64,000 bases of DNA from a virus (taxonomy: Duplodnaviria > Caudoviricetes): IMG/VR virus record IMGVR_UViG_3300033145_002422. The stretch is one strand, 5' to 3'. Position 1 is the stretch's first letter. Every line of letters starts with the position of its first letter. The translations under genes and the position numbers were made by a program. The notes under the pieces are model-generated. The model ran no database searches. It worked only from the letters and a program-made list of their open reading frames with translations, and was not told the origin of the DNA. This document shows positions 3,441-42,048 of this stretch, in pieces.

Positions 3441-6400
3441 ATGATAAATATATTCAGTTTATTAAAAGAATCTCAAGCACAACAAATATACATACAAGGA
3501 CAGCCAGTAGATGATTTAATAGGAACTGTTCATACAATGTACGGGAGGGGCGCACCTACAGTTTATGATGATTCTGGATTTAATAAAAATGATTATGTTA
3601 ATCCTGTTTTTCAGAATATAGCAGGAATGGTTAGCGGAGATAGGATTCCAGTTCAAAATTCGATTAAAGCATTATATTTACTTGCTAAATATCAAAATAG
3701 ACAACTTCCTAATTATAATACTCTCAAATTAAATATACAAACTTTAATAAATCAGGTAACAAATGTTACGGTAGATACATCTATTCCTACTAATAAAATT
3801 ATTGCCATGGGGAATAACCAGTGGGGATTAATATTTAAGATAAATAACTTAACTAAGCAGAGAACAATAAATAAAGCTGTTAAAGAAGAGTTGTTAAGGC
3901 AGGGTAGAAGTCCGGATGAGTCTTGGAGATATTTTAGGGCGGATAGTAGTCAAGGATTAGATATTTACCAAATAAGTCCATCTGTTATATCTATTGTTGC
4001 AACTATATTGCAAAATGAGGGATATGACGTTACGGATATGATTCAGAAGCCGCAGGACCAATCACAGCAAGCTCTAAAGAGATTTGATGCAACTCTCCTA
4101 TCAGATGGTGGTGTTGAAATAGGATTCGATTATAATGCCGATTTGGTTAAATTTGTAAAAAAGGCAAGAAGAAGAAGATTTAATGGGAAAGAGAGAAGAA
4201 CTTGGACAATATATGAAGATAAGAAGTTTTTTGAAGAATTGGAAAAATATTTAAGTAGCAACGGATATGACACATCCAAATTAAAGGATATTATAAATGG
4301 TAAGGCGATTGCTGCCCCAGCAGAAGTAAGGCAAGAGAAAAAGGGAGAAGTTCTTTATTATGATATCTATGATTTGACAAATGGTATGTTTCATATATCT
4401 ATTGTTCCTACTGGTGGTTTATTGTCAAAAGATATATCTGAATTTTTAAGATTTAGTTTTCCTTATTGGGTAGGTAGAAAAAAATTTAAAGAGGCCCAGG
4501 ATCCAAATAATACAGAATTAAAAGATGCTGCAATAAGAACTGTTAATTTAAATCCAAGTTATGTTTCTATAGATTCTAGGACTGGAAAAAAATTATGGGG
4601 TCATGAAATAAGAGGATTATTTTCTGATTATTTCGCTATTGAAGGAATTATATCTAAATTCGGATATGATACAAAAGGTTTTAGAGACATCGTTATGAGT
4701 CTTTATAAAAGAGGCGTTGTTCAAAAAGATGCGATTCCAGGAGTTCTTGATGGATTTAGAAAAAAAGACCCAACTGGAGAAAGAGCATTTGCGAATGATG
4801 ATGAGGCTTTTTATAAAACTATAGATAATAACTATAAATTAAGACAAAAAGATGGAACTGAAAAAGAATTATGGCCTTTGCAAAAAGAGGGTGTGGCGTT
4901 TTTATATAGTAGAAAATCTGCTATACTTGGCGATTCGACTGGTTCTGGAAAATGTCAATCCAAAGATACTTTAGTAAACTCTAACTTGGGAGTTTTTGAG
5001 ATACAAGAGTTGTGGAATAAATATGGAAATATAGAAAATATTTATTTTATAGATAATGAAGATGAGGAGATTATATATCCCAAAGAAGAAATATTTGTTA
5101 ATTCTATTGATGATAATGGAAAAGTTGTTAAAGGAAAGGTTAATTTTCTATATAGGGAGAAATATAGAGGTAAGCTTAGAAAAATAAAGACATCGAACGG
5201 TAAAGAGATAACCGTTTCTTTTCCTCATAAATTTTTAACTCACTGTGGTTGGTCTAATAATTTGAAAGTAGGAGATATAGTTTGCTCTTCTTCTAGACAG
5301 CCGCACCTTAGCAATTCATATAGCAACATCAGTAGCGAGTTAGCTGAATTTTTGGCATGGCAAATTGCCGAGGGGCATGAAACAAAATATGGTATAAGTA
5401 TTACCCAATCAGACATAAAAGTGTTAGATAAATTAAAAGATATATTTGACAATTTTGATTTTAGAGTTAGTTATAACAAAGATAGAAAAATCAAATCTTC
5501 CATAATTAAACCTAATAACAGAACATCTTATTTATCTATATCATCTATTTCTTATAAGAAATATCTTGAATCTATAGGGTATCAATGGGGAAGAAAATCT
5601 AAAGACAAAGAAATTCCAGATTGCGTGATGATGGCTAAAGATGATATTGTTAAAATTTTTTTGAAATCGTTTTTTGATGCTGAAGGATATTGTAGCAAGA
5701 AGTCTCGTAGAATTGGTATAACATCGGCGAGTAAAAAACTAATCTTTCAATTATCTATTCTTTTGCAGAGATTTAATATTTTATGTACTTTTAGAACAAT
5801 GATGAAATGTGCTACAAATGGTACAAAGATAAAAAGACCGTATTACGAATTAAATATTATAGGTTCTGGTGTTCATAAGTTTATGGATGAGATAGGGTTC
5901 GGTTATGCATATAAGAATGATAACTTTAATAATATAAAATCAGAGACTAATTTTAATAAAGAGGGGAAGCCAGTACATATAGTTTTATCTAAATTTTTTG
6001 ATAATTATGATTTGCCGTTGAAATTGTTAAATATTCCATCAAAGAATTTTGTTATCGGTGCAAGAGGCTGGAATTCAGATACTATAAATAAAACTATAAA
6101 AAGTTTTGATTCTCTTGTTGTTGGAGATACAAAAGAAGAATATGGAAAGTTACGAAGGTCTAAATGGACGGATAAAACAACTGCTGTTCTAGAACGAATA
6201 GATAATAAATTAGTTCAGGAGATTGTTAAAGACTTATCTATTATGGCGAATAATGATTTACAGTATGAAAAGATAATTTCTATAGAAATTATAGAATATG
6301 ATGATTATATTTATGATTTAAATATAGAAAAATATCATAATTATATAGCAGAAAATCTTATTTGCCACAATACTTATGAATCCTTAGTAGCCGCTGATAT

Positions 6401-7832
6401 GAGATTGGCTATTAGCGGTGGAAAATGTTTAATTATTACACTTCCTGCGGCTATGCTTCAATGGGAAAATTCAATTAAAAATCTTAAGGGAGATAATGAA
6501 TTGATATCTTATGATGTTACAAATGGTTCTAAATGGACAATATTATCATATAATAATTTAACTAATGCATCTAAGGCCGATCCGAATAACCCAAAAATAA
6601 GAAAAAGGGATATATTAATAGATAATATAAAGAAGGTTGGTGGATTTACAACATTAATTATTGATGAATGTCATATGGTAAAAAATAATGCCATACAGAC
6701 AAGAAATATAATGGCAGTGGCAGAAGGTATACCTTATGTTTGGGGATTGAGTGCAACAATTATTGCCAATAAACCTATTGATGCTTACAGGCAATTAAAA
6801 GTTATAGGTCATAGATTGGGGCAATTACCATTAAAGATATTTAAAGAACATTTTGGTGGATTTGTTAGAATTAAGGGGAAAACTAGAAGAGGTAAATTAG
6901 AGAAGGGCGATGAATCTCAGATACTTAAAGCTGCATCTCAGTTAAGAAAATGGCTTACTCTTTCAGGAGTATATATTAAGAGAAGTAAGAGAGATATTAA
7001 TCCAGATCTTCCAAATCATATTATTCAAGATAATGAGGTAAATGTAGATACAAAGGCTTTATTCGCAGATATCGCCAAGAGGATGCAAAATTATACCAAT
7101 CCGGCATTAGTCGTTTCTCAGATGCAAGCCCAAAGAACAGAACTTGCTAAAATAAAAGTTTCTTTTAGTTTGGATCTAGCTAAAAGCGTTTTAATGCAAG
7201 GTAAAAAAGTAATAGTATTTACATGCTTTAAAGATTCTGCGGAAATGCTAATGAGTGGTTTACAAAAGATTATAAATGATGAGGTAGAAGAGGGTGGGGT
7301 AGTTCTTGGTTATTTAGGTGGAGTTCCGCAGGCAACCAGAGATAGTTATAAGGCATTAATGCAAGACCAAAAAAGTCCGGCGAAAGCTATGGTTATAAGT
7401 ATACTGGCTGGTGGAACTGGATTGGATTTGCCAAATGTTGTTGATGATGTTATTATAAATGATTTTAGTTGGACTCCAAAAGATGCTGAACAATCAGAAG
7501 GTAGGGCATTTAGAATTACAAGTGAAAATGATGTTACCACGACTTATGTTGTTGCAGCGAATAGTCCAGATCAAGAATTTTATGACTATGTACAAATTAA
7601 GAAAAATTTATCTCAAATGATTGGGAATCTTACAAGCCTTGAATCTCAGCTTGTTATGCAGGGTAAAAAACCAGTTGATGTCCAAAAGCAAATAGAAGAG
7701 TTGCAGAAGAAAGATCAGAGTTTAGATGTTGGTATATTAGATTATGTTAAAAAGTTTATGGGAAGTTTAACAGGAGTTGGTAATAAATTATCTAGTGACA
7801 AGTTTAATATGAAGCAATATAAAATTAGTTAA
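3441..7832 (+). CDS. SNF2-family helicase with a HARP-like domain (SMARCAL1-like), intein-containing
   Basis: LWPLQKEGV Q-motif, Walker A DSTGSGK|T split by an intein, DECH, LSAT, GGTGLDL and QSEGRAFR motifs; HARP-like FDYNADLVKFVK...WTI. Confidence 0.9.
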   Translation: MINIFSLLKESQAQQIYIQGQPVDDLIGTVHTMYGRGAPTVYDDSGFNKNDYVNPVFQNIAGMVSGDRIPVQNSIKALYLLAKYQNRQLPNYNTLKLNIQTLINQVTNVTVDTSIPTNKIIAMGNNQWGLIFKINNLTKQRTINKAVKEELLRQGRSPDESWRYFRADSSQGLDIYQISPSVISIVATILQNEGYDVTDMIQKPQDQSQQALKRFDATLLSDGGVEIGFDYNADLVKFVKKARRRRFNGKERRTWTIYEDKKFFEELEKYLSSNGYDTSKLKDIINGKAIAAPAEVRQEKKGEVLYYDIYDLTNGMFHISIVPTGGLLSKDISEFLRFSFPYWVGRKKFKEAQDPNNTELKDAAIRTVNLNPSYVSIDSRTGKKLWGHEIRGLFSDYFAIEGIISKFGYDTKGFRDIVMSLYKRGVVQKDAIPGVLDGFRKKDPTGERAFANDDEAFYKTIDNNYKLRQKDGTEKELWPLQKEGVAFLYSRKSAILGDSTGSGKCQSKDTLVNSNLGVFEIQELWNKYGNIENIYFIDNEDEEIIYPKEEIFVNSIDDNGKVVKGKVNFLYREKYRGKLRKIKTSNGKEITVSFPHKFLTHCGWSNNLKVGDIVCSSSRQPHLSNSYSNISSELAEFLAWQIAEGHETKYGISITQSDIKVLDKLKDIFDNFDFRVSYNKDRKIKSSIIKPNNRTSYLSISSISYKKYLESIGYQWGRKSKDKEIPDCVMMAKDDIVKIFLKSFFDAEGYCSKKSRRIGITSASKKLIFQLSILLQRFNILCTFRTMMKCATNGTKIKRPYYELNIIGSGVHKFMDEIGFGYAYKNDNFNNIKSETNFNKEGKPVHIVLSKFFDNYDLPLKLLNIPSKNFVIGARGWNSDTINKTIKSFDSLVVGDTKEEYGKLRRSKWTDKTTAVLERIDNKLVQEIVKDLSIMANNDLQYEKIISIEIIEYDDYIYDLNIEKYHNYIAENLICHNTYESLVAADMRLAISGGKCLIITLPAAMLQWENSIKNLKGDNELISYDVTNGSKWTILSYNNLTNASKADPNNPKIRKRDILIDNIKKVGGFTTLIIDECHMVKNNAIQTRNIMAVAEGIPYVWGLSATIIANKPIDAYRQLKVIGHRLGQLPLKIFKEHFGGFVRIKGKTRRGKLEKGDESQILKAASQLRKWLTLSGVYIKRSKRDINPDLPNHIIQDNEVNVDTKALFADIAKRMQNYTNPALVVSQMQAQRTELAKIKVSFSLDLAKSVLMQGKKVIVFTCFKDSAEMLMSGLQKIINDEVEEGGVVLGYLGGVPQATRDSYKALMQDQKSPAKAMVISILAGGTGLDLPNVVDDVIINDFSWTPKDAEQSEGRAFRITSENDVTTTYVVAANSPDQEFYDYVQIKKNLSQMIGNLTSLESQLVMQGKKPVDVQKQIEELQKKDQSLDVGILDYVKKFMGSLTGVGNKLSSDKFNMKQYKIS
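4953..6371 (+). mobile_element. Intein with LAGLIDADG endonuclease in helicase Walker A (473 aa)
   Basis: GK|CQSKDTLV...NLICHN|T; LAWQIAEG and FLKSFFDAEG endonuclease motifs. Confidence 0.93.
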
Positions 7833-10615: not shown

Positions 10616-11314
10616 ATGATATATAAAAGATTAAAGCATAATTCTATTAAGTCCAGAATAAAACCCAAAAAATGGACTAAGGTTCTTTTGAATGAGCCAT
10701 GCTTTATTCTGGGAAATGGACCATCTTTAACAGATGGTAACATACATGTTTTACAAGATAAATATTTTACTATTGGTATAAATAGTTCTTGCGATTTATT
10801 TGATTCTACTATATTAATGTGGCAGGATATAGAATTTTTTTATTCTAAGAGAAAAGTTTTACCTAATTTAAAGTCTATTCTTTTTTGTAGAGATTCTTCA
10901 GACCCTATGAATTTAGCATATCATTTTTCTTTAGAGAGTGGTGGTTTTCATGTTCCAAGAAATGCTTCTGTATTAATGGGCAGGGGATCGACCGGCCCTC
11001 TCGCTTTTCAATTGGCATATGTTCTTGGATGTGATCCAATAGTTTTATTGGGTTTTGATTGTAGGAATAGAGACGGTAAAACAGATTTTTATGGTGTAAA
11101 TAAGTTTCATAAGCCTCATACTATGAATTCTTGTCGAAGGGGATTAAAATGGGTTAGAGATTGTCAACATGATAGAAAAATTATTAATTGTTCAGATAAT
11201 TCTGTTTTTACAGAAAGTTTAAAATTAACAGATGTTGTAGAAGAGTTAAGTAAAGATTATCCATATAGAACAAGAAAATATTTTAATGCGAAGTTAATAG
11301 ATGAATTAGAGTGA
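10616..11314 (+). CDS. DUF115/MAF-like glycosyltransferase-related protein
   Basis: ILGNGPSL, TIGIN and QLAYVLGCDPIVLLGFD motifs. Confidence 0.65.
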   Translation: MIYKRLKHNSIKSRIKPKKWTKVLLNEPCFILGNGPSLTDGNIHVLQDKYFTIGINSSCDLFDSTILMWQDIEFFYSKRKVLPNLKSILFCRDSSDPMNLAYHFSLESGGFHVPRNASVLMGRGSTGPLAFQLAYVLGCDPIVLLGFDCRNRDGKTDFYGVNKFHKPHTMNSCRRGLKWVRDCQHDRKIINCSDNSVFTESLKLTDVVEELSKDYPYRTRKYFNAKLIDELE

Positions 11315-11356
11315 TGATAAAATTGTTATAATAGTTTTTAGAAATAGGAGGAAGTT

Positions 11357-12223
11357 ATGAAAGAACTGAGACGTGGGCAAGGGAATAGTAGTAATAGTTT
11401 AAATGAGAATGAGAGTGGACTTTATAAGATAAAACCATCATTGTATGAAACAAACAATTCTGAAGAATTAGGTCCACCGATTTCTGATGAAGAGAGACTA
11501 GTTAAAGTAACAAATATGAATATAGGGCAATTATATAGATTGTTTGATGGGTCTAATTATAGTTATCAAAGATTTGTTTTGAAAAAGTTTTTTGGAAATT
11601 CTGACTTTTCTTCTATACAAGAAGAGGTTTGTTTTTATAGAAACAATGTTTTGCAATTTGTTCAAAGCAAATTTTTTAAGTCGAATGGATATAAGATTGT
11701 AGCAGAATTGCCATCGAGTAGAAATAACGGTTCAATTCCAAAGAAATCTTCTGTTCAATGCGATATTAATAAGCGTTTTATAGTATATGCTGATGCTTTG
11801 GTTTTTTATGAGAATGATAAGTCTGAAAAGATAGTAATATCCTTTTCTTTGGATTCGTATTCCGGTCAAACATTTTACGAGTTATTTTCTTCTACCGATC
11901 CAGATGTACTTTGGCAGGAATGGCAAGAGTATGGTAAGAAAAACAATCTATATAAGAATAAAAAGATAGATGCTAATTGTGGTTTTCTTAAGATAGATAA
12001 GAAAATCACATGGGGAGATATTATTTTAACAGATAAATTCATAGACATAATAAAATCTAATGTGTTGAATATATTTTCAATGAGAGATCTTCTGGAAAAA
12101 AATAAAATATCTTTGAAGAGAGGAATAATATTTTCTGGAAAACCGGGATGTGTTATAAAAGGAACTAAAATAAAAATTAGAAAGAAAAAAGAAAAAGGAA
12201 GGCACAATATTATATACGAATAA
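11357..12223 (+). CDS. AAA+ ATPase N-terminal half fused to a 24-aa split-intein N-fragment
   Basis: ITWGDIIL...KRGIIFSGKPG (first half of Walker A), then CVIKGTKIKI and a stop. Confidence 0.88.
   Translation: MKELRRGQGNSSNSLNENESGLYKIKPSLYETNNSEELGPPISDEERLVKVTNMNIGQLYRLFDGSNYSYQRFVLKKFFGNSDFSSIQEEVCFYRNNVLQFVQSKFFKSNGYKIVAELPSSRNNGSIPKKSSVQCDINKRFIVYADALVFYENDKSEKIVISFSLDSYSGQTFYELFSSTDPDVLWQEWQEYGKKNNLYKNKKIDANCGFLKIDKKITWGDIILTDKFIDIIKSNVLNIFSMRDLLEKNKISLKRGIIFSGKPGCVIKGTKIKIRKKKEKGRHNIIYE
12149..12220 (+). mobile_element. Split intein N-fragment (IntN, 24 aa)
   Basis: Cys1 block A CVIKGTKIKIRKK directly after GKPG. Confidence 0.85.
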
Positions 12224-12224
12224 T
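12194..12224 (+). promoter_or_regulatory. Putative phage late promoter of the endonuclease gene
   Basis: AAAGG-N18-CGAATAAT embedded in the IntN tail. Confidence 0.45.
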
Positions 12225-12280
12225 ATTATATAGTCCTAATACAGGTAGTTTGAACAATTTTATACCTCTGGAGATATAAT

Positions 12281-13318
12281 ATGAAAGAGAAATTATTTTT
12301 TAGAAATTGCCCAGCATGTAATGTTAAAATGGGATATACAACAAAAAAAGAATGCTTTAAAGCAGAAAAAAATAATAGTTTTTGTAAAAAATGCAGGAAA
12401 TTAAAATTAGAGATAAGCAAAAATGAAAAATGTTTTTTCAGAGAATGTTATGTTTGTGGTAGGAAAGTTGGATATACTAACAAAAAGAACATGAATAGGG
12501 CCAAGAAGATTAATCGCCCTTGTGCAAGTTGTGTATCTAAGGGTGTTCAAAATAGACCTGATATAATAAAGAGAAAATCACTATATGCAATTGCCCATTC
12601 TTTAGGAGAGCTTAATCCTTTTTATGGTAGGCATCATACAGAAAGTTCAAAAAATAAAATAAGAAATAATGTAGATAGATCCTTTTCACAAACTAAAGAA
12701 TTTAGGGAAAAGTCTGCTAGAAAAGGTATTAAAAATGGTATGTATGGAATATCTTATTACGATGTTTGGGTTGTTAAATATGGAGAAGAAGAAGCTAATA
12801 AAAAGTTGATAGATCTTAAAAAGAGAAAATCTATTCAGACATCAGGAAAAAATAATCCTATGTATGGAAGGAAATCTCCTGTAGGATCTGGAAATGGATG
12901 GAGTGGATGGTATAAGGGTTGGTATTTTAGAAGTTTAAAAGAATTATCATATATGATATATGTTATTGAAAAAAATAGGTATAAATGGATTAGTGCGGAG
13001 ACTAAAGAATTAAGAATTCCATATATAGATTATAACGGAAAAGATAAAACATATGTAGCTGATTTTTTTATTAATAATTCTATTCTTGTGGAAGTTAAAC
13101 CAAAGCAATTAATGGGAACTATTAACAATAGGTTAAAAAAAGAGGCTGCTATAAAGTTTTGTAAAATTTTTGGATACAAATATGTTATGGTTGATGTAAA
13201 ACTTATAGAAGTATCTATTTTGATTGATTTGTATAAAAATGGTCAAGTTGTATTAATTGAAAAGTATAATAAGAAATTGGAGAAAATAATATGCAAATTG
13301 GAGAAGAAAAAGAAGTAG
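12281..13318 (+). CDS. Free-standing homing endonuclease (Zn ribbons, NUMOD3 repeats, TnsA-like PD-(D/E)XK domain)
   Basis: Four CxxC pairs; GELNPFYGRHHTESSK and GKNNPMYG; FRSLKE...YVADF...LVEVKP. Confidence 0.82.
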   Translation: MKEKLFFRNCPACNVKMGYTTKKECFKAEKNNSFCKKCRKLKLEISKNEKCFFRECYVCGRKVGYTNKKNMNRAKKINRPCASCVSKGVQNRPDIIKRKSLYAIAHSLGELNPFYGRHHTESSKNKIRNNVDRSFSQTKEFREKSARKGIKNGMYGISYYDVWVVKYGEEEANKKLIDLKKRKSIQTSGKNNPMYGRKSPVGSGNGWSGWYKGWYFRSLKELSYMIYVIEKNRYKWISAETKELRIPYIDYNGKDKTYVADFFINNSILVEVKPKQLMGTINNRLKKEAAIKFCKIFGYKYVMVDVKLIEVSILIDLYKNGQVVLIEKYNKKLEKIICKLEKKKK

Positions 13319-13665
13319 AAATTCAGGATTTATTTGTTTTTGCGCAAGATGATGGAATATATGAGATAGAAACTCCCCAAGGATGGGTTGAGATAGGTGA
13401 TTTAATTATGAAGCGTGATAAAGATTGTTATTTAATTAGAACTAATTCTGGAAAAGAATTGGGAGGTTCTTCGGATCATTATGTAGAGACAACTAATGGT
13501 TGGGAAAAGCTAGAAGATATAAATGTTCAAAATACTACAGTATATACATCATCAGGTGAAGATGATATAGTTTCTAAAGAATATATAGGTAAAGATGATA
13601 CTTATGATTTAGAAGTAAAAAATAATGATCATAAATATTATGCGAATGGGATCGTTTCCCACAAT
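13291..13665 (+). mobile_element. Split intein C-fragment (IntC, 125 aa, no endonuclease domain)
   Basis: Block B GSSDH, block F TYDLEV, block G ANGIVSHN followed by Thr+1. Confidence 0.88.
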
Positions 13666-14322
13666 ACCGGCAAGACTATGTTGTGTAAAATTCTTGCTAA
13701 GGAGGTAGATGCTACTGTAATTTATGTTCTTCCATCTCATGTTAAGCAGTTATTTGATATATCAAGAATATGTGATATGGCAAGAGAACTTGCTCCATCT
13801 TTAATAATTATAGAAGATATAGATTTTTTGACAAAAGACAGAACAGGAGGAAATAATTGGTCTGTTGTAGAACTTATGAATCAAATGGATGGTATAGAAG
13901 ATTTTAAAGATATTATTACATTGGCTACAACTAATATGGTTGATGATATAGAGAAGGCTATTAAGAATAGGCCAGGAAGATTCGATAGAGTTATAGATAT
14001 TCCTTCGCCAGATCTCAAGACGAGAATTAGAATGTTTAATAGATTTTGTGTTAATTTTAATATAGGTAAAGATGTAGATTTTAGTAAAATAGCTAAAGAA
14101 ACGAATAATGCAACAGGAGCCTATATAAAAGATGTATGTATTACCGCTGCATTTATCGCTATACAGGATGGTAGCGTGAATAAGAATGGAAAGGTTATTA
14201 TTTTTAATAAACATTTTAATGAATCTTTGAGAGAAATAAAAGATAAGGATTTTAGTCGTTTTTCTGAAGTAACTAATTCAAAGAGATCTATAGGATTTGG
14301 TGATTCTCCTAAATCTGATTAA
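13291..14322 (+). CDS. Split-intein C-fragment (125 aa) fused to the AAA+ ATPase C-terminal half
   Basis: GGAG SD; intein ends IVSHN|TGKT, completing Walker A; Walker B IIIEDID, TTN sensor and RPGRFDR arginine finger. Confidence 0.9.
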   Translation: MQIGEEKEVEIQDLFVFAQDDGIYEIETPQGWVEIGDLIMKRDKDCYLIRTNSGKELGGSSDHYVETTNGWEKLEDINVQNTTVYTSSGEDDIVSKEYIGKDDTYDLEVKNNDHKYYANGIVSHNTGKTMLCKILAKEVDATVIYVLPSHVKQLFDISRICDMARELAPSLIIIEDIDFLTKDRTGGNNWSVVELMNQMDGIEDFKDIITLATTNMVDDIEKAIKNRPGRFDRVIDIPSPDLKTRIRMFNRFCVNFNIGKDVDFSKIAKETNNATGAYIKDVCITAAFIAIQDGSVNKNGKVIIFNKHFNESLREIKDKDFSRFSEVTNSKRSIGFGDSPKSD

Positions 14323-14388
14323 TTTTTTTAAAGATTTATTTTTATACTATTATAATATATGTTTTAATAATTTAAGAGGGAAAAAATA

Positions 14389-17300
14389 ATGATACAAAAG
14401 ATTTATTCTTATGAAGAGGTATATAATTCTACCTTGGAATATTTTAATGGAGATGAATTAGCGACAAAGGTTTTTATCAATAAATATGCACTAAGAAATA
14501 AAGAACAAGAGTTATTAGAGAAAAGCCCAGATGATATGCATTGGAGAATAGCTAACGAAATAGCTAGGATTGAAAAAGATAAGTTTAAAAATCCAATGAA
14601 TGCTGAAGATATATTTGAATATTTGAAAGGTTTTAAAAGGCTTATTCCACAAGGTTCTCCAATGAATGGGATAGGAAATCGTTTTCAATATACATCGTTA
14701 AGTAATTGTTACGTTATTGAGCCTCCTGTGGATAGTTACGGAGGAATTCATTTATCTGATGAGCAGTTAACACAGATTAGCAAAAGAAGGGGAGGTACAG
14801 GATTAGATATTTCTAATTTAAGACCGGATGGAACTCCAACTTCCAATGCAGCAAAAACTTCCACTGGTATTATACCTTTTATGGAGAGATTTTCCAATTC
14901 GATAAGAGAGGTAGGTCAATGTTTATATTCGTCGTCTATGATTCTTTTATCGAGAGGATTGACAAGAATTGATCGTGTTAATATTGGAGATAGTGTATGG
15001 ACAGAGAATGGGTGGGCTAATGTAGAGAAAGTGGTAAAAAATAAAAAAGATACTATTAAAATAAAAACCAAACGAGGTTTTGAAATTATTTGTAGTCGAA
15101 ATCATTTTTTGCATACTTCTGAGGGGGAGAAAAAAGCCATAGATTTTTCACATGGCGATAGTATAACGGCTATCGCAGGTCAAGAATGGTATGGTGAAGA
15201 AATAAATTTGGTTGTAGGATATAAAAAGAGCAATTATAACAATTCTAATAGACTTAATGAGAATGTAAAAGAACCTCATGTTCTTACTGCTGAATTGGCT
15301 TATCTTATTGGATATTCTTATGGTGACGGGTATGTTGGCAAACATCGTCATAATAAGTCCAACTGTTCGTTGGAACTCGCTTGTTCAAACCAATATCCAG
15401 AAATAATTAAAAAGTTACAATCTATTTTCAAAAATGAATACAATCTTGATGTTAAAGAATCCGACAGGTCTAACCGTGGAGATATGGTTTCGTTAAGAGT
15501 TTCGTCAAGGATGTTGTTAAATCATTTGGAACAAAATAATATTCTTAAGGAACATGCTGGTTGTTTAAAATTGCCTGAATGTTTATTTAAAGCAAAAAGT
15601 GAAGTCGTGTTTGGTTTTATAGCGGGATATTTCGATGCCGATGGGACTGCAATTGAATCAAAAAAAGTTTATAGATTTGCATCAATTGATAATCAATTTT
15701 TGAAAGATATTCAAAAGATACTTTTAGCATATGGAATTGTATCAACGATATATATACAAGATAGATCAAATATGGGTTGGCATAATATAAGTGCTTTGTC
15801 AATTAATGGTCGTAGAAATCAGGAAAAATTTTCAGAGCTTTGCAATCAAAGTGTCAAAGTTAATCATGCTAGATGGGTGCCAAAAGTAAGGGACTTTACT
15901 CGAACAATTTATAATACATCTGATTATACAACTAGAGCCAGTCGCCATGGATATATTATAGATGATAGACAGAAGATTTCTTATTCTACTTCGGAGCGTC
16001 TTTGTTCAGATTTACAAATTAGGGATTCATACTGCTTAATTGAAGATCAAATTGAATCGGTGGATGAGTTTGAGTTAAACAGCGATGTATATGACTTGTG
16101 TTTAGATCATACTCATTTTTTTAGTGCAAATGGTATATATGTTCATAATTCAGGTAGACGTGGCGCGTTGATGATTTCTATTTCAATTCATCATCCAGAA
16201 GTTTCAGAATTTGCTAAAATTAAGAGAGATAAAAAGAAGGTTACTGGAGCTAACATATCAGTAAGATTGTCTGACGAGTTTTTAAAAGCAGTTGAAGAAA
16301 ATAAAGAGTATGAGCAGCGATGGCCTGTCGATTCTAAAGAACCAGTTGTTTCTAAAATGGTTAATGCAAGAGAAATTTGGATGCAGTTTATAGAAAGTGC
16401 ATGGGATTGTGCAGAACCAGGTTTGCTTTTTTGGGATAGTATTATAAGAGAGAGTCCAGCAGATTGTTATCCAGGTTTCCAGACAGTCGGCACTAATCCC
16501 TGTGGCGAAATTCCGTTGAGTGCATTAGACAGTTGTAGACTTCTGGTTATAAATATATTCAATTATGTGAAGAATGCGTTTACGAATAAAGCAGAATTCG
16601 ATTACGATGCTCTTAGGAAGGATGCTATTATTGCTCAGAGATTTATGGATGATATTATTGATTTAGAGTTAGAAGCAATAGGTAAAATTATTAACAAGAT
16701 TAAAAGAGATCCAGAAGAAGACAGAATTAAACGAGTAGAATTGGAAATGTGGCAAAATATTAAAAAAGCATGTCAAAACGGAAGAAGAACAGGTGTTGGA
16801 ACTACCGCTGTTGGTGATACTATCGCAGCTCTGGGATTTAAATACGGTTCTACAAGATCGATAGAAGTTGTTGATGAGATATATAGAACTATTAAATTGG
16901 GATGTTATAGAAGTTCTGTAGATATGGCAAAAGAGTTAGGGGCATTTCCTGTATGGGATTTTGAATTAGAAAAAAATAATCCTTATTTATTAAGAATCAA
17001 AGACGATGATCAAGAATTATGGGATGATAATAAAAAATATGGAAGGCGTAATATATCCAATACGACGTTGGCTCCATCTGGAAGTGTTTCTTTATTATCT
17101 AGAACTACAAATGGAACAGAACCAGTTTTTAAATTGTCATATAAGAGAAGAAGGAAAATAAATCCTGATGAACAAAATACTAGAGTTGATTTTGTCGATG
17201 CCAGCGGAGACCAGTGGGAAGAATTTATAGTATATCATCCCAAGGTTAAGAATTGGATGAAAATAACTGGTGAAACTGATATAGAAAAATCTCCATGGTT

Positions 17301-18045
17301 TGGATGCTGTGCTGGCGAATTGGATTGGAAGAAAAGAGTAAAGTTGCAAGCTACGATACAAAAACATATTGATCATTCTATTTCATCTACTGTAAATCTA
17401 CCTAAAGAAGCTACGGTAGAAGATGTTGCTAAAATATATGAGGAAGCATGGAAGCTTGGATGTAAGGGCATAACTATTTATAGAGAAGGAAGTAGAGCCG
17501 GTGTTTTGGTAGATGAAAACGAATCAGAAATTATTGTAAAAACTTCTGCTCTTAAAAGACCCAAAAAACTCCCATGCGACGTTCACCATCTTACTATAAA
17601 GGGAAATCAGTATTTTGTTTTGGTTGGATTATTAAATGGAGAACCATATGAAGTTTTTGCGGATAAAAATGGAGTAGTTTCAAGAAGTATTAAAAAAGGA
17701 GAAATTATTAAAGTAAAAAGAGGGCAATATAAAGCTATTTTTGATAATGAATTTGAGCTTGATAATTTAACTGAGCATTTAGACGATATGGAAGATACCA
17801 TAACTAGACTTGTTTCTTCTAATCTCAGGCATGGAACCGATATAAAATTTTTGGTTCAACAGCTTGAAAAGTCTAAAGGCGATGTTTTGTCGTTTGAAAA
17901 GGCTATTGCAAGGGCTTTGAAAAAATATATTAAAGATGGGACTATTGTTACTGGAGAGGTTTGTGAATCCTGTAAAGGGACTAATCTTGCTAGACAAAAC
18001 GGGTGTGTTACTTGTATGGATTGTGGTTGGAGTAAATGTTCATGA
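14389..18045 (+). CDS. nrdJ: Class II (adenosylcobalamin-dependent) ribonucleotide reductase, intein-containing
   Basis: SNCY, RRGGTG, TNPCGE, RRTGVG, APSGS, SISSTVN, GCKGITIYR; C-terminal TSCPD/Zn-type domain ending CGWSKC. Confidence 0.92.
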   Translation: MIQKIYSYEEVYNSTLEYFNGDELATKVFINKYALRNKEQELLEKSPDDMHWRIANEIARIEKDKFKNPMNAEDIFEYLKGFKRLIPQGSPMNGIGNRFQYTSLSNCYVIEPPVDSYGGIHLSDEQLTQISKRRGGTGLDISNLRPDGTPTSNAAKTSTGIIPFMERFSNSIREVGQCLYSSSMILLSRGLTRIDRVNIGDSVWTENGWANVEKVVKNKKDTIKIKTKRGFEIICSRNHFLHTSEGEKKAIDFSHGDSITAIAGQEWYGEEINLVVGYKKSNYNNSNRLNENVKEPHVLTAELAYLIGYSYGDGYVGKHRHNKSNCSLELACSNQYPEIIKKLQSIFKNEYNLDVKESDRSNRGDMVSLRVSSRMLLNHLEQNNILKEHAGCLKLPECLFKAKSEVVFGFIAGYFDADGTAIESKKVYRFASIDNQFLKDIQKILLAYGIVSTIYIQDRSNMGWHNISALSINGRRNQEKFSELCNQSVKVNHARWVPKVRDFTRTIYNTSDYTTRASRHGYIIDDRQKISYSTSERLCSDLQIRDSYCLIEDQIESVDEFELNSDVYDLCLDHTHFFSANGIYVHNSGRRGALMISISIHHPEVSEFAKIKRDKKKVTGANISVRLSDEFLKAVEENKEYEQRWPVDSKEPVVSKMVNAREIWMQFIESAWDCAEPGLLFWDSIIRESPADCYPGFQTVGTNPCGEIPLSALDSCRLLVINIFNYVKNAFTNKAEFDYDALRKDAIIAQRFMDDIIDLELEAIGKIINKIKRDPEEDRIKRVELEMWQNIKKACQNGRRTGVGTTAVGDTIAALGFKYGSTRSIEVVDEIYRTIKLGCYRSSVDMAKELGAFPVWDFELEKNNPYLLRIKDDDQELWDDNKKYGRRNISNTTLAPSGSVSLLSRTTNGTEPVFKLSYKRRRKINPDEQNTRVDFVDASGDQWEEFIVYHPKVKNWMKITGETDIEKSPWFGCCAGELDWKKRVKLQATIQKHIDHSISSTVNLPKEATVEDVAKIYEEAWKLGCKGITIYREGSRAGVLVDENESEIIVKTSALKRPKKLPCDVHHLTIKGNQYFVLVGLLNGEPYEVFADKNGVVSRSIKKGEIIKVKRGQYKAIFDNEFELDNLTEHLDDMEDTITRLVSSNLRHGTDIKFLVQQLEKSKGDVLSFEKAIARALKKYIKDGTIVTGEVCESCKGTNLARQNGCVTCMDCGWSKCS
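14920..16149 (+). mobile_element. Intein with LAGLIDADG endonuclease in NrdJ (410 aa)
   Basis: VGQ|CLYSSS...IYVHN|SGRRGA; LIGYSYGDG and FIAGYFDADG motifs. Confidence 0.93.
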
Positions 18046-37650: not shown

Positions 37651-40600
37651 ATGGCTATTAAGTTTCATCTACCAGATAAAAATACTGATAAGAAGAAGAT
37701 GGCGGCATCTTCTGGATCATACCATTCTTCTACTCAAAAAACTCAAATGAGATATGCTTCTAGTCAATCTGTTAATTTACCAATAACTAAAAATTCGCAA
37801 TATGCTGGTTCTGCTGCTAATGTTACAATGACTCAGCCTATGTTTTTCTCGCCTTTACATACGCCTCAGAATTGGCAGATTGCTAGTAAGCGCAGAGAAA
37901 TATATCAATGGTCTAGATTTTATTATGAGAATGAACCCAAGGTAGCTGCTGGAGTAGATTTTTATTCGCAATTTCCAATGAATGGATTTAGATTAGAATG
38001 TAAGAGCAAAAAGATATTAAAATATTTTGAAAAAATAGTAAAAGATTTGAGATTAAATCACTGGTTAAAATTAATTAGTCATGAATATTATTTGTTAGGT
38101 GATGTATTTCCTTTTTTAGAAATTGAATGTCCTATTTGTGGAGGCTCAGGTGTAGATTTAGAAGGAAATTTATGTAATCATCCAGGTGGAAAGATAAAAA
38201 GAATTGTTGTTTTAAATCCTGATTGGATTGAAGTTCAACAAAATGTTATTGCATCTGAACCTCTTGTGGCTTTAATTCCAGATGAAGAATTAAGAATGAT
38301 TGTTACCCGAAGACAGCCAAAACAGATATATGATAGATTGCCAGCTAAATTAATAGAAATGGTTTCTACTGGTCAACCTATTCCGCTATCGAACAGATGT
38401 GTGAGTCATTTAAAACATAATGCAAGTCCATACGGTACATACGGAACATCTATGCTTCGTAGATTATTTACGATGCTTGCATATAAGACAAAACTTATTA
38501 CAGCTAACTGGATTGTTGCTGAAAGATTAATTCTTCCAGTTAGAGTTGTTAAGATTGGAGATAAAGATCGTCCAGCGAGTGTTGATGATATTGCAGATGC
38601 TTCTAATCAGTTGTCTGCTGTTGCTAATGATCCTAATTTAACTATTGTTACCCATCATGCTTTTGATTATGAGTGGTACGGGGCTTGCTATTCTTCTGAT
38701 ACAGAAATACTTACAAAAGATGGTTGGAAACATTTTTATGATATATCTGATAACGGTATAGAGGTGGCAACATACAATAAAGATAGTGGCAAGATGGAAT
38801 ATCAAATGCCTTTGGAATATCATGAGTATGATTTTAAATCAAACAGCAAGTTGAAAATGTATCATTTTAATCACAAATCTGTTGATGTGATGGTTACTCC
38901 GAACCATAGGATGCTTATCGAGAGAAATGGAAAAATGATGGAAATTTATTCTCAAGATGTTAAACATGATGATAAATTTGTATCAACTGCCGACTGGGAT
39001 GGGCAGATTCCTGACGTTATGCCATATAAAAAATCCGCTTTAAGTCACATGAGTCTTGACGATTATTTAAGATTTATTGGTTATTATATTTCTGAAGGTG
39101 GGTTAAAAATAGAAAAAAATAAAAATCTTGTTAAAGATAAGATTATTCAAGCTTGTTCGATAAGCCAATCTAAATTTAGCGATTGTTATAACGACATAGA
39201 AGATGCGGTTTGTACGGCTTATTCCAAATACTCAACATATCATGATGATAGAGGAAGTGGTTGTTCGTTATTCGGTATCAATAGTGTAGAAATAGCTAGA
39301 TATTTAGCAGCAGAATTCGGCACTCATGCTTACAACAAAACTATTCCTTCTTGGATTAAAAATCTACCAAAGGATAGGTTGAAAGTTCTTTATGACGCTA
39401 TGATGAGCGGCGATGGAGATGTTAGAGAAGATGGAGAAAAACCAAGATATAGATATGTAACTACTTCAAAAAACTTAGCTGATGATTTTTCTGAGATATG
39501 TTTTAAATTAGGATATTTTACCACAACTCAGAAAGAGAAGTATACAAAGTCAAAAAATAGAAGAAATATTTATAGATTGTATTGGTCTGAAAAAAGAAAA
39601 GAAACTAAATTTAATATACGAAAACAACATATTTCTAGAGAAGAATATAATGGAAAAGTTTACTGTGTAAAGGTTCCTAATAGTTGGCTCGTTGTCAGAA
39701 GAAATGGACGGATTTCCATTCAAGGTAACACCGGCAAGATACACAATATTACTAGTGAATTAGAACAGATAGGTAAAGAACTTCTTGATGGTTTAATGTT
39801 GAACCAGAGCCTTTTGAACGGGGAAATGGGCGCTTATTGCCATAGTGAAGATACCTTAACATTAACTGATTCTGGATTTAAAAGATACGATGAGATTACC
39901 AAGAAAGATAAAATAGCATGTTATAATCCGGATACTAAGAAACTGGAATATCACAAATATAAAGAAAAGTATGTTTATGATTATAATGGAGAAATGGTTA
40001 ATTTCAAGACCGATAAGATAGATATTAAAGTTACTCCAAATCATAGAATGTTTATACAGCCTAGAGGTAAAAAAGGATTTAGATTTATAGAAGCTAAAGA
40101 TGTTAGGGCAAGAGCAAAGTTGATCCAGTCTGTTGATGGATTCGATGGCAGTTATCAAAAAGAAATTACTATTGGGGATGAAACCTATTCTATATATGAT
40201 TTCTGCCAGATGATTGGATATTATGCTTCTGAGGGTTCTGTTTCAGAGGAAAAGAGAGAAAATAGAATTAAGGGAATAAAAACATTAAATATTCACCAAT
40301 CTATAAATGGAAAAGCTAGAAGTGGAATATGCGAATTATATAGCAGGATGTTTGATACTGGATATGAATCAGAAAATAGCGTTTCTATTTATAAGCCAGA
40401 ATTAGCTAAATATCTTTCTGAAAACTGTGGTCGTCATTCTTATTTCAAAAAAATACCTCAATTTGTTAAAAATCTTTCTTCTGAATGTTTGGAAGTAGTT
40501 TTGAAAGCCTTATTAGATGGAGACGGTTCTTATAATATAAGTAATGATGGAAGGAAGAATGGTCATTATAGATATTATACCAGTAGCGATCAACTTGCAA

Positions 40601-42048
40601 AAGATGTTGAAGAAATAGCATTTAAATGTGGATATACTACATCTGTATCATATCAAAGTGTAGAAGAACAAAATAATAAAAAGAAAAAGTACTATAATAA
40701 ATCTGGATATGAATATATTTCTAAGAAAGGAAGATGGATTATATGTATAAGCAAAAACTTTAAGGGAAAATATCCAACTCTTCAGTCTAAAAAATCTATA
40801 TTTGCAGGAAAAGAGATTACAAAAGAAAATTACAAAGGTAGGGTATATTGTTTTTCTGTTCCTCATGGTTTGTTTGTGACAAAGCGTAATGATAAAATTA
40901 CGATACAGGGAAATTCGTCGGCACAAGTCGGCGTTGAGACAATGATTAGAAGACTTGAGAACTGGAGAAACACTTTATCAGAATGGGTTGAAAATAATGT
41001 ATTTGTTCCAATTTCTATGATGCAGGGATTTATAGATGAGGATGAAACTAAAACTATTGGAGAAACTATGTTTTTATATCCAACAATTAAATGGAATGAT
41101 TTAAATCTTAGAGATAAAACAAATCATTATCAAACAATGATGCAATTACATGAAAGACAGATTATAAGTACTAGGACATTGTTAGAAGACCTTGATTTAG
41201 ATTATGATCAAGAAATTCAGAGAATTAGAGAAGAAGCTGTTATGGCTGGTCCTCAAGGACAAATGGGTGGCGGAGCTATGCCTCCGATGGGTGGCGGAGC
41301 TATGCCTCCGATGGGTGGCGGAGCTATGCCTCCGATGGGTGGCGGAGCTATGCCTGGTGGGGAGATGTTAGGCGGAATGCCAGGCGGAATGCCAGGCGGA
41401 ATGCCAGGCGGGGAGATGCCAGGTGGGATGCCGATGGGAGGAGCTGTTCCAGGTGGAGTAGGGGCAGCATCATCTCCTATGGGTAGTCTGAAGATAGGGA
41501 AAAAAGGAAAAGGTGGAAAAAATTTAGAAGATCAAATGAAAGTTCCTCCTCCTAAATTTATTAAATTAACTAGATTAGAACAGCAGATGTATAAAACATT
41601 ACAAGAGCTAGAATTCCCTTATCAATTATTTGGGCAGTATCAAGTCGTAATTCCTGGTAATCAAAGACCTTATATACTTGATTTTGCATACCCATCTATA
41701 GGTATTGGTATAGAAACAGATGGAGAAATATGGCATGAAAGTATTGAAAATAAATCAAGAGATCAAGATAGAGATAATAAGTTAGCAAGTGTTGGTTGGA
41801 GAATATTAAGATTTAAGCAATCTGCAATAGAGGAGAGTATGGAAGAAATTAAGAAAGTAATATATCAGAATGTAGTTGATGCATCGAGAGAAAAAACTAA
41901 GAGAGTCAAGAGATCGGAAGAAGATTCAACTTTAATTAAAGAAGCTTCAGTAGAAACTTTATTTGAATATATAGATGATAATGATGTAAAATATCATACT
42001 GAAGAAATGGATAACGGTCTTGGTACTATTTATATTATTGGGAAATAA
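37651..42048 (+). CDS. Portal protein with two inteins, a Gly/Met/Pro linker and a C-terminal DUF559-like nuclease domain
   Basis: EP.VAAGVD.YS.FP, EYYLLGDVF, VLNPD, YGT.YGTS.L; lies upstream of the protease and capsid genes. Confidence 0.85.
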   Translation: MAIKFHLPDKNTDKKKMAASSGSYHSSTQKTQMRYASSQSVNLPITKNSQYAGSAANVTMTQPMFFSPLHTPQNWQIASKRREIYQWSRFYYENEPKVAAGVDFYSQFPMNGFRLECKSKKILKYFEKIVKDLRLNHWLKLISHEYYLLGDVFPFLEIECPICGGSGVDLEGNLCNHPGGKIKRIVVLNPDWIEVQQNVIASEPLVALIPDEELRMIVTRRQPKQIYDRLPAKLIEMVSTGQPIPLSNRCVSHLKHNASPYGTYGTSMLRRLFTMLAYKTKLITANWIVAERLILPVRVVKIGDKDRPASVDDIADASNQLSAVANDPNLTIVTHHAFDYEWYGACYSSDTEILTKDGWKHFYDISDNGIEVATYNKDSGKMEYQMPLEYHEYDFKSNSKLKMYHFNHKSVDVMVTPNHRMLIERNGKMMEIYSQDVKHDDKFVSTADWDGQIPDVMPYKKSALSHMSLDDYLRFIGYYISEGGLKIEKNKNLVKDKIIQACSISQSKFSDCYNDIEDAVCTAYSKYSTYHDDRGSGCSLFGINSVEIARYLAAEFGTHAYNKTIPSWIKNLPKDRLKVLYDAMMSGDGDVREDGEKPRYRYVTTSKNLADDFSEICFKLGYFTTTQKEKYTKSKNRRNIYRLYWSEKRKETKFNIRKQHISREEYNGKVYCVKVPNSWLVVRRNGRISIQGNTGKIHNITSELEQIGKELLDGLMLNQSLLNGEMGAYCHSEDTLTLTDSGFKRYDEITKKDKIACYNPDTKKLEYHKYKEKYVYDYNGEMVNFKTDKIDIKVTPNHRMFIQPRGKKGFRFIEAKDVRARAKLIQSVDGFDGSYQKEITIGDETYSIYDFCQMIGYYASEGSVSEEKRENRIKGIKTLNIHQSINGKARSGICELYSRMFDTGYESENSVSIYKPELAKYLSENCGRHSYFKKIPQFVKNLSSECLEVVLKALLDGDGSYNISNDGRKNGHYRYYTSSDQLAKDVEEIAFKCGYTTSVSYQSVEEQNNKKKKYYNKSGYEYISKKGRWIICISKNFKGKYPTLQSKKSIFAGKEITKENYKGRVYCFSVPHGLFVTKRNDKITIQGNSSAQVGVETMIRRLENWRNTLSEWVENNVFVPISMMQGFIDEDETKTIGETMFLYPTIKWNDLNLRDKTNHYQTMMQLHERQIISTRTLLEDLDLDYDQEIQRIREEAVMAGPQGQMGGGAMPPMGGGAMPPMGGGAMPPMGGGAMPGGEMLGGMPGGMPGGMPGGEMPGGMPMGGAVPGGVGAASSPMGSLKIGKKGKGGKNLEDQMKVPPPKFIKLTRLEQQMYKTLQELEFPYQLFGQYQVVIPGNQRPYILDFAYPSIGIGIETDGEIWHESIENKSRDQDRDNKLASVGWRILRFKQSAIEESMEEIKKVIYQNVVDASREKTKRVKRSEEDSTLIKEASVETLFEYIDDNDVKYHTEEMDNGLGTIYIIGK
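38686..39729 (+). mobile_element. Portal intein 1 (348 aa, LAGLIDADG)
   Basis: YGA|CYSSDTEIL...VTPNH...ISIQGN|T; IGYYISEG and AMMSGDG. Confidence 0.92.
39838..40914 (+). mobile_element. Portal intein 2 (359 aa, LAGLIDADG)
   Basis: GAY|CHSEDTLTL...VTPNH...ITIQGN|S; IGYYASEG and ALLDGDG. Confidence 0.92.
41263..41410 (+). repeat. 24-bp (MGGGAMPP) x about 3.9 and 12-bp (GGMP) x3 tandem repeats in the portal gene
   Basis: atgggtggcggagctatgcctccg and ggcggaatgcca repeats. Confidence 0.9.

Follow-up and report, generated by a model that had tools for sequence, protein, structure and literature searches.

An AAA+ ATPase gene of a jumbo phage interrupted within Walker A by a VidaL-type split intein and a free-standing endonuclease gene

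The stretch of DNA analysed here (the window; 64,000 nucleotides of a Caudoviricetes virus, IMG/VR record IMGVR_UViG_3300033145_002422) is part of a jumbo-phage contig of about 256 kb with portal, sigma factor, ribonucleotide reductase (RNR) and similar genes. In the window, the gene for an AAA+ ATPase is interrupted in its Walker A motif, after the second Gly and before the Thr (GKPG/TGKT, the slash marking the break). The first half ends in a short N-terminal intein piece (IntN, 24 residues), the second half begins with a long C-terminal piece (IntC, 125 residues), and a presumed homing endonuclease gene lies between them. Protein trans-splicing with Cys1 and Thr+1 is the best explanation of this arrangement and very probably the right one, judged from sequence comparison and structure prediction. 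The nearest characterised relative is the split intein VidaL.

The open reading frame (ORF) of the N half (11357-12223, 288 aa) ends in ...IIFSGKPG followed by CVIKGTKIKIRKKKEKGRHNIIYE and a stop codon. The Cys1 codon (12149-12151) comes directly after GKPG, and the IntN codons span 12149-12220. The C ORF (13291-14322, 343 aa) encodes 125 intein residues up to IVSHN (13665) and then continues with TGKT...IIIEDID...RPGRFDR. It matches Pfam AAA (3.7e-17) and AAA_lid_3 (5.3e-8). The AAA match starts with position 8 of the profile, which falls on residue 125/126 of the C ORF. This ORF therefore lacks the first strand and the initial half of Walker A, and both are found at the end of the N ORF. Partial NCBIfam matches of the C-extein are to PAN/CDC48/FtsH-type AAA, and by its profile matches the host ATPase is assigned to the classical AAA clade.

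Intein-free alleles of the same gene were found by a search with the N half. P0002 and P0003 (484 and 485 aa) and P0004 (421 aa) are 74-85% identical to both halves and run uninterrupted through the position of the break, where they read GKPGTGKT, SSPGTGKT and GKPGGGKT, respectively. The C-extein is 85% identical to P0002. P0002 is encoded on L083, a contig of 46.7 kb whose genes are ordered as in the window: SNF2 helicase with an intein, lysozyme, sigma factor, HNH, MptE-like, AAA, RNR, dUTPase. The ATPase gene is uninterrupted in L083, and the RNR gene there is likewise without an intein. In the DNA alignment the insert falls cleanly between the codons GGA (Gly) and ACx (Thr), and the junction in L083 is GGA/ACA. 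The break in the P-loop is not due to chance, as intein-free orthologues carry GKPGTGKT uninterrupted and the DNA junction is clean. Read from these alignments, the two ORFs are a single AAA+ gene. The initial annotation, made from the letters of the window, had proposed such a gene with its P-loop GKPGTGKT restored on joining of the exteins, and the start of the Pfam match, the orthologues and the DNA junction all agree with it. Among isolated-phage GenBank records, tblastn with the C half gave only distant AAA/FtsH-like genes (at most 35% identity, in the extein part only), and the N half gave no match.

The features of a class-1 intein, namely Cys1, blocks B, F and G, the +1 residue, the Hint fold and intein-free alleles, are all found here. 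IntC residues 104-126 match the intein C-terminal region of NCBIfam (TIGR01443) with 25.5 bits against a cut-off of 15.6. In alignments of 16, 20 and 40 IntC relatives, H63 (preceded by Ser60), D106, H114 and S123-H124-N125 vary little or not at all. At the +1 position the window has Thr, and the relatives have Thr, Cys or Ser. Cys1 with Thr+1 is a known pairing, seen in 12% of Cys1 inteins (PMC11766414). An AlphaFold2 model of IntC alone, built from a 40-row alignment, has a mean predicted local distance difference test score (pLDDT) of 89.1 and a predicted template modelling score (pTM) of 0.80. When this model was compared with the PDB by Foldseek, all 50 of the 50 best hits were inteins or (bacterial intein-like) Hint domains. 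On this model the IntC piece is a Hint fold. The atypically split intein of 24 and 125 residues with Cys1 and Thr+1 that the initial annotation described is upheld by the sequence, by TIGR01443 and by the model. Its other readings of the locus also stand: the basic IntN and acidic IntC start (net charge +7 for IntN and -8 for IntC residues 1-30) and the GGAG Shine-Dalgarno sequence before the C ORF.

To place the intein among known ones, a profile of the IntC family was compared with PDB sequences. The best match is VidaL (6vgv/6vgw; E 1.7e-18 over 126 residues), which aligns from the first IntC residues. It is followed by gp41-1 (6e-12), the IntC of Cat, a consensus of AceL/GOS-TerL (6dsl, 1.7e-5), and PolB16 (about 1e-3). 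VidaL 6vgv is also the top Foldseek hit of the IntC model (TM-score 0.82, root-mean-square deviation 1.6 A, 28% identity), and CatC 6dsl ranks 35. A phmmer search of PDB sequences with the IntN tail gave no match. VidaL is a natural atypically split intein with a 16-aa IntN (Neugebauer et al. 2017; Burton et al. 2020, both as cited in PMC13014065), and PMC13014065 reports it as a fast trans-splicer. In the published constructs (PMC10264447 supplement) the flanks are ESG on the N side and SGK on the C side, the IntN is CLPKEAVVQIRLTKKG and the IntC starts with MIEEKKVTVQEL.

Cys1 and the C-terminal SHN are common to both inteins. The split is at the same place, Met1 of VidaL IntC standing opposite residue 3 of the IntC in the window. 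The insertion point in Walker A is also the same (GxxG/xGK; ESG/SGK in VidaL, GKPG/TGKT here). The IntN pieces align residue by residue up to Gly16 of VidaL and Gly17 here (C-L-P-K-E-A-V-V-Q-I-R-L-T-K-K-G in VidaL against C-V-I-K-G-T-K-I-K-I-R-K-K-K-E-K-G). They differ in length, the 24-residue IntN having an extra conserved 8-residue tail, GRHNIIYE, with a His19 that is invariant in its family. The two inteins differ further in the +1 residue, Ser in VidaL and Thr here, and the present one has a basic IntN with an acidic IntC start and a classical AAA+ ATPase as host. VidaL and PolB16 are of the split class S1 (after beta-2), and AceL-TerL and GOS-TerL are of class S2 (after alpha-1) (PMC13014065). 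The first regular element of the IntC model is a helix at residues 11-20, in agreement with an S1 split, which lies between the first beta-hairpin and helix alpha1. By its short IntN, separate genes and homology to VidaL, and as far as the model can place it, the split site is S1, of the VidaL type.

AceL-TerL had been named in the initial annotation as the comparison type, and this did not hold. The AceL-TerL, GOS-TerL and Cat inteins are similar in having a short IntN (25-37 aa, near the 24 here) and a long IntC and in coming from phages or metagenomes, according to what PMC11766414 and PMC13014065 give from Thiel et al. 2014, Bachmann and Mootz 2015 and Stevens et al. 2018. AceL-TerL differs in its host, the large terminase subunit, and in its S2 split, whereas the host here is an AAA+ protein and the split falls before alpha1. 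Membership in the AceL-TerL group was rejected on account of the host and the split site, and also as Cat is a far weaker match than VidaL by both profile and Foldseek. PolB16 OarG (PMC10189870) resembles the present intein in its S1-type split and very short IntN (15 aa). It is a cysteine-independent Ser1/Ser+1 intein of PolB with a 168-aa IntC, and its similarity is weak (E about 1e-3).

Fractured phage genes of this general kind were described by Dassa, London, Stoddard, Schueler-Furman and Pietrokovski in 2009 (PMC2677866). There, too, a split intein interrupts the gene for a phage enzyme, the two intein halves flank a free-standing endonuclease gene, the coding frames overlap, and each piece has separate expression signals. 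The hosts in that paper include terminase, DNA ligase, IMPDH, DnaE and NrdJ, and the paper does not mention AAA, ATPase, P-loop or Walker; its endonucleases are GIY-YIG or Vsr-like, whereas the one here is NUMOD3 with a TnsA-like PD-(D/E)xK domain. Insertion into an AAA+ P-loop is known from contiguous inteins such as that at site a of the small subunit of RFC (Novikova et al. 2016, PMC4760082), but those are archaeal, contiguous and unsplit, without a free-standing endonuclease. Our literature search found no description of a split intein in an AAA or Clp ATPase. The kind of element is well known already, with natural split inteins of short IntN, fractured phage genes and P-loop insertion all on record and VidaL as a relative characterised both biochemically and in structure. 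What goes beyond the textbook case is a fixed 24-residue IntN with an invariant His19, charge-inverted subfamilies and natural re-fused forms.

A scan of IMG/VR with the IntC alignment gave 79 loci, corresponding to 37 IntC sequences after removal of duplicates. At 27 of these 37 non-redundant loci, the IntN stands at the end of a separate upstream ORF; it has 23-28 residues, 24 in nearly all cases. Across the 27 loci the IntN follows the pattern C-V-[LI]-x-x-T-x-I-x-[IV]-x-K-...-H19-x-[IF], in which Cys1, Thr6 and His19 are invariant. His19 has no counterpart in the 16-aa IntN of VidaL or in contiguous relatives such as P0144. The hosts are classical AAA ATPases (GxPG/[TS]GK[TS]) and Clp-type ATPases (GEPG/CGKTAIVEGL, with a C-extein of about 600 aa). 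The spacing of the halves falls into two classes, 7-142 nt without an endonuclease and 0.9-1.25 kb with one; the exception is L053, with 3.9 kb. When the IntC profile was run against 1.84 billion representative proteins, it found 34 clusters at E<=1e-30 and 738 at E<=1e-10, and the top hits were mostly IntC from residue 1. Terminases and other hosts carry contiguous mini-inteins that belong to this broad family but are more distant. The initial annotation had presented the type as not known from AAA+ ATPases; its novelty was overestimated, the arrangement being a widespread family in phage AAA and Clp-type ATPases and not a one-off.

The relatives include contiguous forms, which the initial annotation had suggested looking for together with intein-free alleles. 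P0134 is orthologous to this ATPase and has IntN joined to IntC in a single ORF through a linker of 13 residues, and P0159 is similar. At L009 (1982-4090) the intein is contiguous as well, and its 26-residue linker is an in-frame remnant of the endonuclease C-terminus (...VLVEVKPK...). Compared at the sequence level, these forms in L009, P0134 and P0159 suggest re-fusion after loss of the endonuclease.

Conservation of the pieces was compared with that of the host protein. In the N halves P0005, P0006 and P0007 the IntN is 75-79% identical, and the whole proteins are 30-54% identical. Between the window and L001 the identities are 35% for the N-extein, 79% for IntN, 71% for IntC and 50% for the C-extein, and the ranking is the same against L005, L004 and L006. 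By these identities the intein parts are better conserved than the host protein.

The charges of the two pieces vary together. Over the 27 loci, the net charge of IntN is anticorrelated with that of IntC residues 1-30 (Spearman -0.73) but not with that of the remaining IntC (-0.02). At positions predicted to be in contact, IntN 9/11 against IntC 8/10, the combination K,R/E,E is swapped to E,E/K,K (Spearman -0.88). AAA-type members have K or R at IntN 9 and 11 and E at IntC 8, 10, 25 and 27; Clp-type members have E at IntN 9 and 11 and K at those IntC positions, and intermediates exist. This charge-swap co-variation at contact positions supports an association of the pieces and is independent of the complex predictor.

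The complex itself was predicted from IntC with 15 extein residues and the last 25 N-extein residues with IntN, each with a purpose-made alignment. The mark used for such predictions is reached by 58 of 80 solved complexes and by 2 of 110 mismatched pairs. The prediction passes, with scores of 0.85, 0.86 and 0.85 in three runs, whereas the best of three controls scored 0.00, and with a contact agreement of at least 82% and a partner pLDDT of at least 62. The predicted interface comprises Pro-2, Gly-1 and all 24 IntN residues, and IntN 6-12 is paired with IntC 8-11 and 24-27.

The ORF between the halves has two CxxC...CxxC units, NUMOD3 motifs (Pfam 1.1e-6, above the cut-off) and a C-terminal nuclease domain. 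The latter matches PHROG 15427 'endonuclease' (9e-12) and ESM Atlas clusters of Tn7_TnsA-like_N (PD-(D/E)xK)/NUMOD3 (features 0.97, structure TM 0.85-0.95). A Pfam scan of the ORF gave no GIY-YIG or Vsr match at E<=0.1. L001, L005, L007 and L010 have homologues of this ORF (43-70% identity) at the corresponding place, with ...ADF...VEVKP conserved. The endonuclease ORF and the IntC ORF overlap by 28 nt, and an identical 28-nt overlap is present in L001. A free-standing NUMOD3/TnsA-like gene overlapping the IntC start, as the initial annotation had it, is thus what the domain matches and the overlap show. The N-terminal part of the L001 endonuclease is encoded by an ORF of its own (117 aa), which points to decay. 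A different ORF, of about 390 aa, is present in Clp-type loci. In P0145 and P0147 the NUMOD3/TnsA-like endonuclease is joined in frame to the N-terminus of IntC, making one polypeptide of endonuclease, IntC and C-extein. By sequence and by analogy, the middle gene is presumably a homing endonuclease. Homing is suggested by the presence/absence polymorphism, by the intein being better conserved than its hosts and by the analogy.

If the locus works by trans-splicing, the N half, the C half and the endonuclease would be translated separately, each from its own ribosome-binding site. The basic IntN strand (about residues 6-12) would insert between the two acidic N-terminal IntC strands (about 8-11 and 24-27) and complete the Hint fold. 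Class-1 chemistry would then begin with a thioester at Cys1, which would be attacked by Thr+1. Cyclisation of Asn125 would free the intein, and an O-to-N shift would leave a native peptide bond in a 482-residue ATPase with GKPGTGKT. The endonuclease gene would be a selfish passenger; its product presumably cuts intein-free or endonuclease-free alleles of co-infecting phages and so may spread the cassette.

Several points weigh against this reading. Splicing itself is what we infer. Because Thr is a poorer nucleophile at +1 than Cys or Ser, splicing may have a low rate and yield. The intein profiles proposed as a check in the initial annotation gave a divided answer, TIGR01443 being above its cut-off and Pfam Intein_splicing weak, with 19.4 bits over residues 14-125 of the C ORF against a gathering cut-off of 35.8. 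The IntN-IntC complex prediction, also proposed there, has a high score against the controls, but VidaL complexes (6vgv/6vgw) have already been solved, and the score may for this reason reflect likeness and not binding of this copy. The charge co-variation is uncorrected for phylogeny, and two clades, AAA-type and Clp-type, dominate it. The GRHNIIYE tail, eight residues with the invariant His19, is without a counterpart in VidaL.

One alternative is that the locus is a splicing-dead relic. The ATPase halves would then be non-functional remnants, or they would be held together only non-covalently by the intein pieces, without a peptide bond. The degraded-looking endonuclease in L001, an indication that parts of such cassettes decay, and the Pfam score below the cut-off would fit a relic. 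All catalytic positions are intact, however, and they are invariant across relatives whose exteins are only 22-50% identical. Each half is a complete ORF preceded by its own ribosome-binding site, and VidaL, the closest relative, is the fast trans-splicer mentioned above. Non-covalent joining would leave about 150 residues in the P-loop, which is hard to square with ATP binding. A relic is therefore unlikely.

Removal of the insert at the level of nucleic acid, by a group I or group II intron or by excision of a mobile DNA element with the intein-like flanks coincidental, is far less probable still. Phage introns do host free-standing endonuclease genes as well (Dassa et al. 2009, PMC2677866), but a scan of 11000-14600 with Rfam gave no intron or other RNA family at E<=1, and the flanks encode conserved intein blocks in frame with both exteins. 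Relatives in which the halves are 7-142 nt apart, with no endonuclease, leave no room for an intron. Programmed bypassing was also considered and was rejected, as the 1.07 kb between the halves contains a full ORF. An artefact of assembly or sequencing, either a chimera or a frameshift that has split a gene with a contiguous intein, could be suspected in a contig from a metagenome-type assembly but is equally hard to credit: independent contigs of other samples (L001, L005, L007, L010) show the same three genes in the same arrangement, with an endonuclease homologous to this one, the 24-residue IntN with its stop is conserved in 27 loci, and the overlap of endonuclease and IntC is the same in L001.

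The features of the locus are listed in Table 1. IntC has its own ribosome-binding site, and its ATG lies 1068 nt downstream of the IntN ORF. A promoter and terminator scan gave 19 sites against 22 expected from shuffles, and hence no excess.

Table 1. Features of the fractured ATPase locus, in positions of the window (RBS, ribosome-binding site)
Feature	Position	Strand	Basis
N-half RBS, AGGAGG	11346..11351	+	Sequence reading; 5 nt upstream of ATG 11357
N-extein, 264 residues: family-specific N-terminal domain and start of AAA module, up to GKPG	11357..12148	+	ORF list; full-length alignment with P0002/P0003
IntN, 24 codons (Cys1...Glu24) and stop	12149..12223	+	Sequence; tail conservation in relatives
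Endonuclease-gene RBS, GGAG	12270..12273	+	Sequence reading; 7 nt upstream of ATG 12281
Free-standing endonuclease gene (presumed homing), 345 aa	12281..13318	+	Pfam NUMOD3, PHROG 15427, ESM Atlas matches, homologues in relatives
C-half RBS, GGAG, within endonuclease coding region	13279..13282	+	Sequence reading; 8 nt upstream of ATG 13291
IntC, 125 residues: block B Ser60-x-x-His63, block F Asp106/His114, block G His124-Asn125	13291..13665	+	TIGR01443, VidaL profile match, AlphaFold2 model
C-extein, 218 residues and stop: Thr+1, TGKT, Walker B IIIEDID, second region of homology RPGRFDR, AAA lid	13666..14322	+	Pfam, NCBIfam, P0002

Other mobile elements are present nearby. The gene directly downstream (14389-18045, + strand) encodes the RNR large subunit with a contiguous intein and a LAGLIDADG domain (Pfam Intein_splicing 210-587, LAGLIDADG_3 405-484); the syntenic L083 has an 809-aa RNR without that intein. 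A 1463-aa helicase ORF at 3441-7832 (+ strand; Helicase_C, SNF2-type in L083) contains a large LAGLIDADG intein at residues of about 520-977. The 1465-aa ORF at 37651-42048 (+ strand) has intein and LAGLIDADG matches and a C-terminal DUF559/MTES_1575 restriction-endonuclease-like domain. With the helicase ORF and this ORF counted, there are at least four inteins within the 64-kb window. A 721-aa ORF at 51861-54026 (+ strand) carries a free-standing LAGLIDADG_2 endonuclease domain and DUF7487. In the relative contig L002 (1470-4392) a canonically split intein breaks the RNR gene in two: ORF1 stops after block B (...LTPDHKVYT...), and ORF2 follows 52 nt later with an IntC of about 44 aa up to ...NNILVSN/CGEIP. 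In L001, which is syntenic with the window, a Cas12f1-like TNB (TnpB-type) gene (529-1821, - strand) and a small ribbon-helix-helix (RHH) gene lie between the sigma-factor and macro-domain genes, and they are absent at that place in the window.

It is possible, though we propose it only tentatively, that the inteins with a 24-residue IntN form a distinct, widespread and so far undescribed S1 clade on the Walker A of phage AAA and Clp-type ATPases, with an extra His19 tail and two charge-inverted subfamilies. If so, the AAA subfamily (basic IntN, acidic IntC strands) and the Clp subfamily (acidic IntN, basic IntC strands) could be naturally orthogonal, synthesizable ligation pairs, and the contiguous P0134 and L009 would show that a split intein can re-fuse once the endonuclease is lost.

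Few natural split inteins have an N piece small enough to be made by peptide synthesis, those in the papers cited here being AceL-TerL, GOS-TerL, VidaL and PolB16, and short-N split inteins are in active use for protein semisynthesis and for protein editing in live cells. The locus adds a well-supported relative of VidaL with Cys1 and Thr+1, and its relatives extend this to a family of at least 27 natural pairs. The charge-swapped contact strands of AAA-type and Clp-type members amount to a built-in electrostatic code that can be tested for orthogonality. Knowledge of how such elements work is left unchanged by the locus. What it offers is the life cycle of a cassette within a single gene family: an intein-free allele, a split intein with an endonuclease, a split intein without one and a contiguous form that appears re-fused. 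If the halves are joined by trans-splicing, an AAA+ ATPase of a jumbo phage would rely on post-translational ligation within its P-loop.

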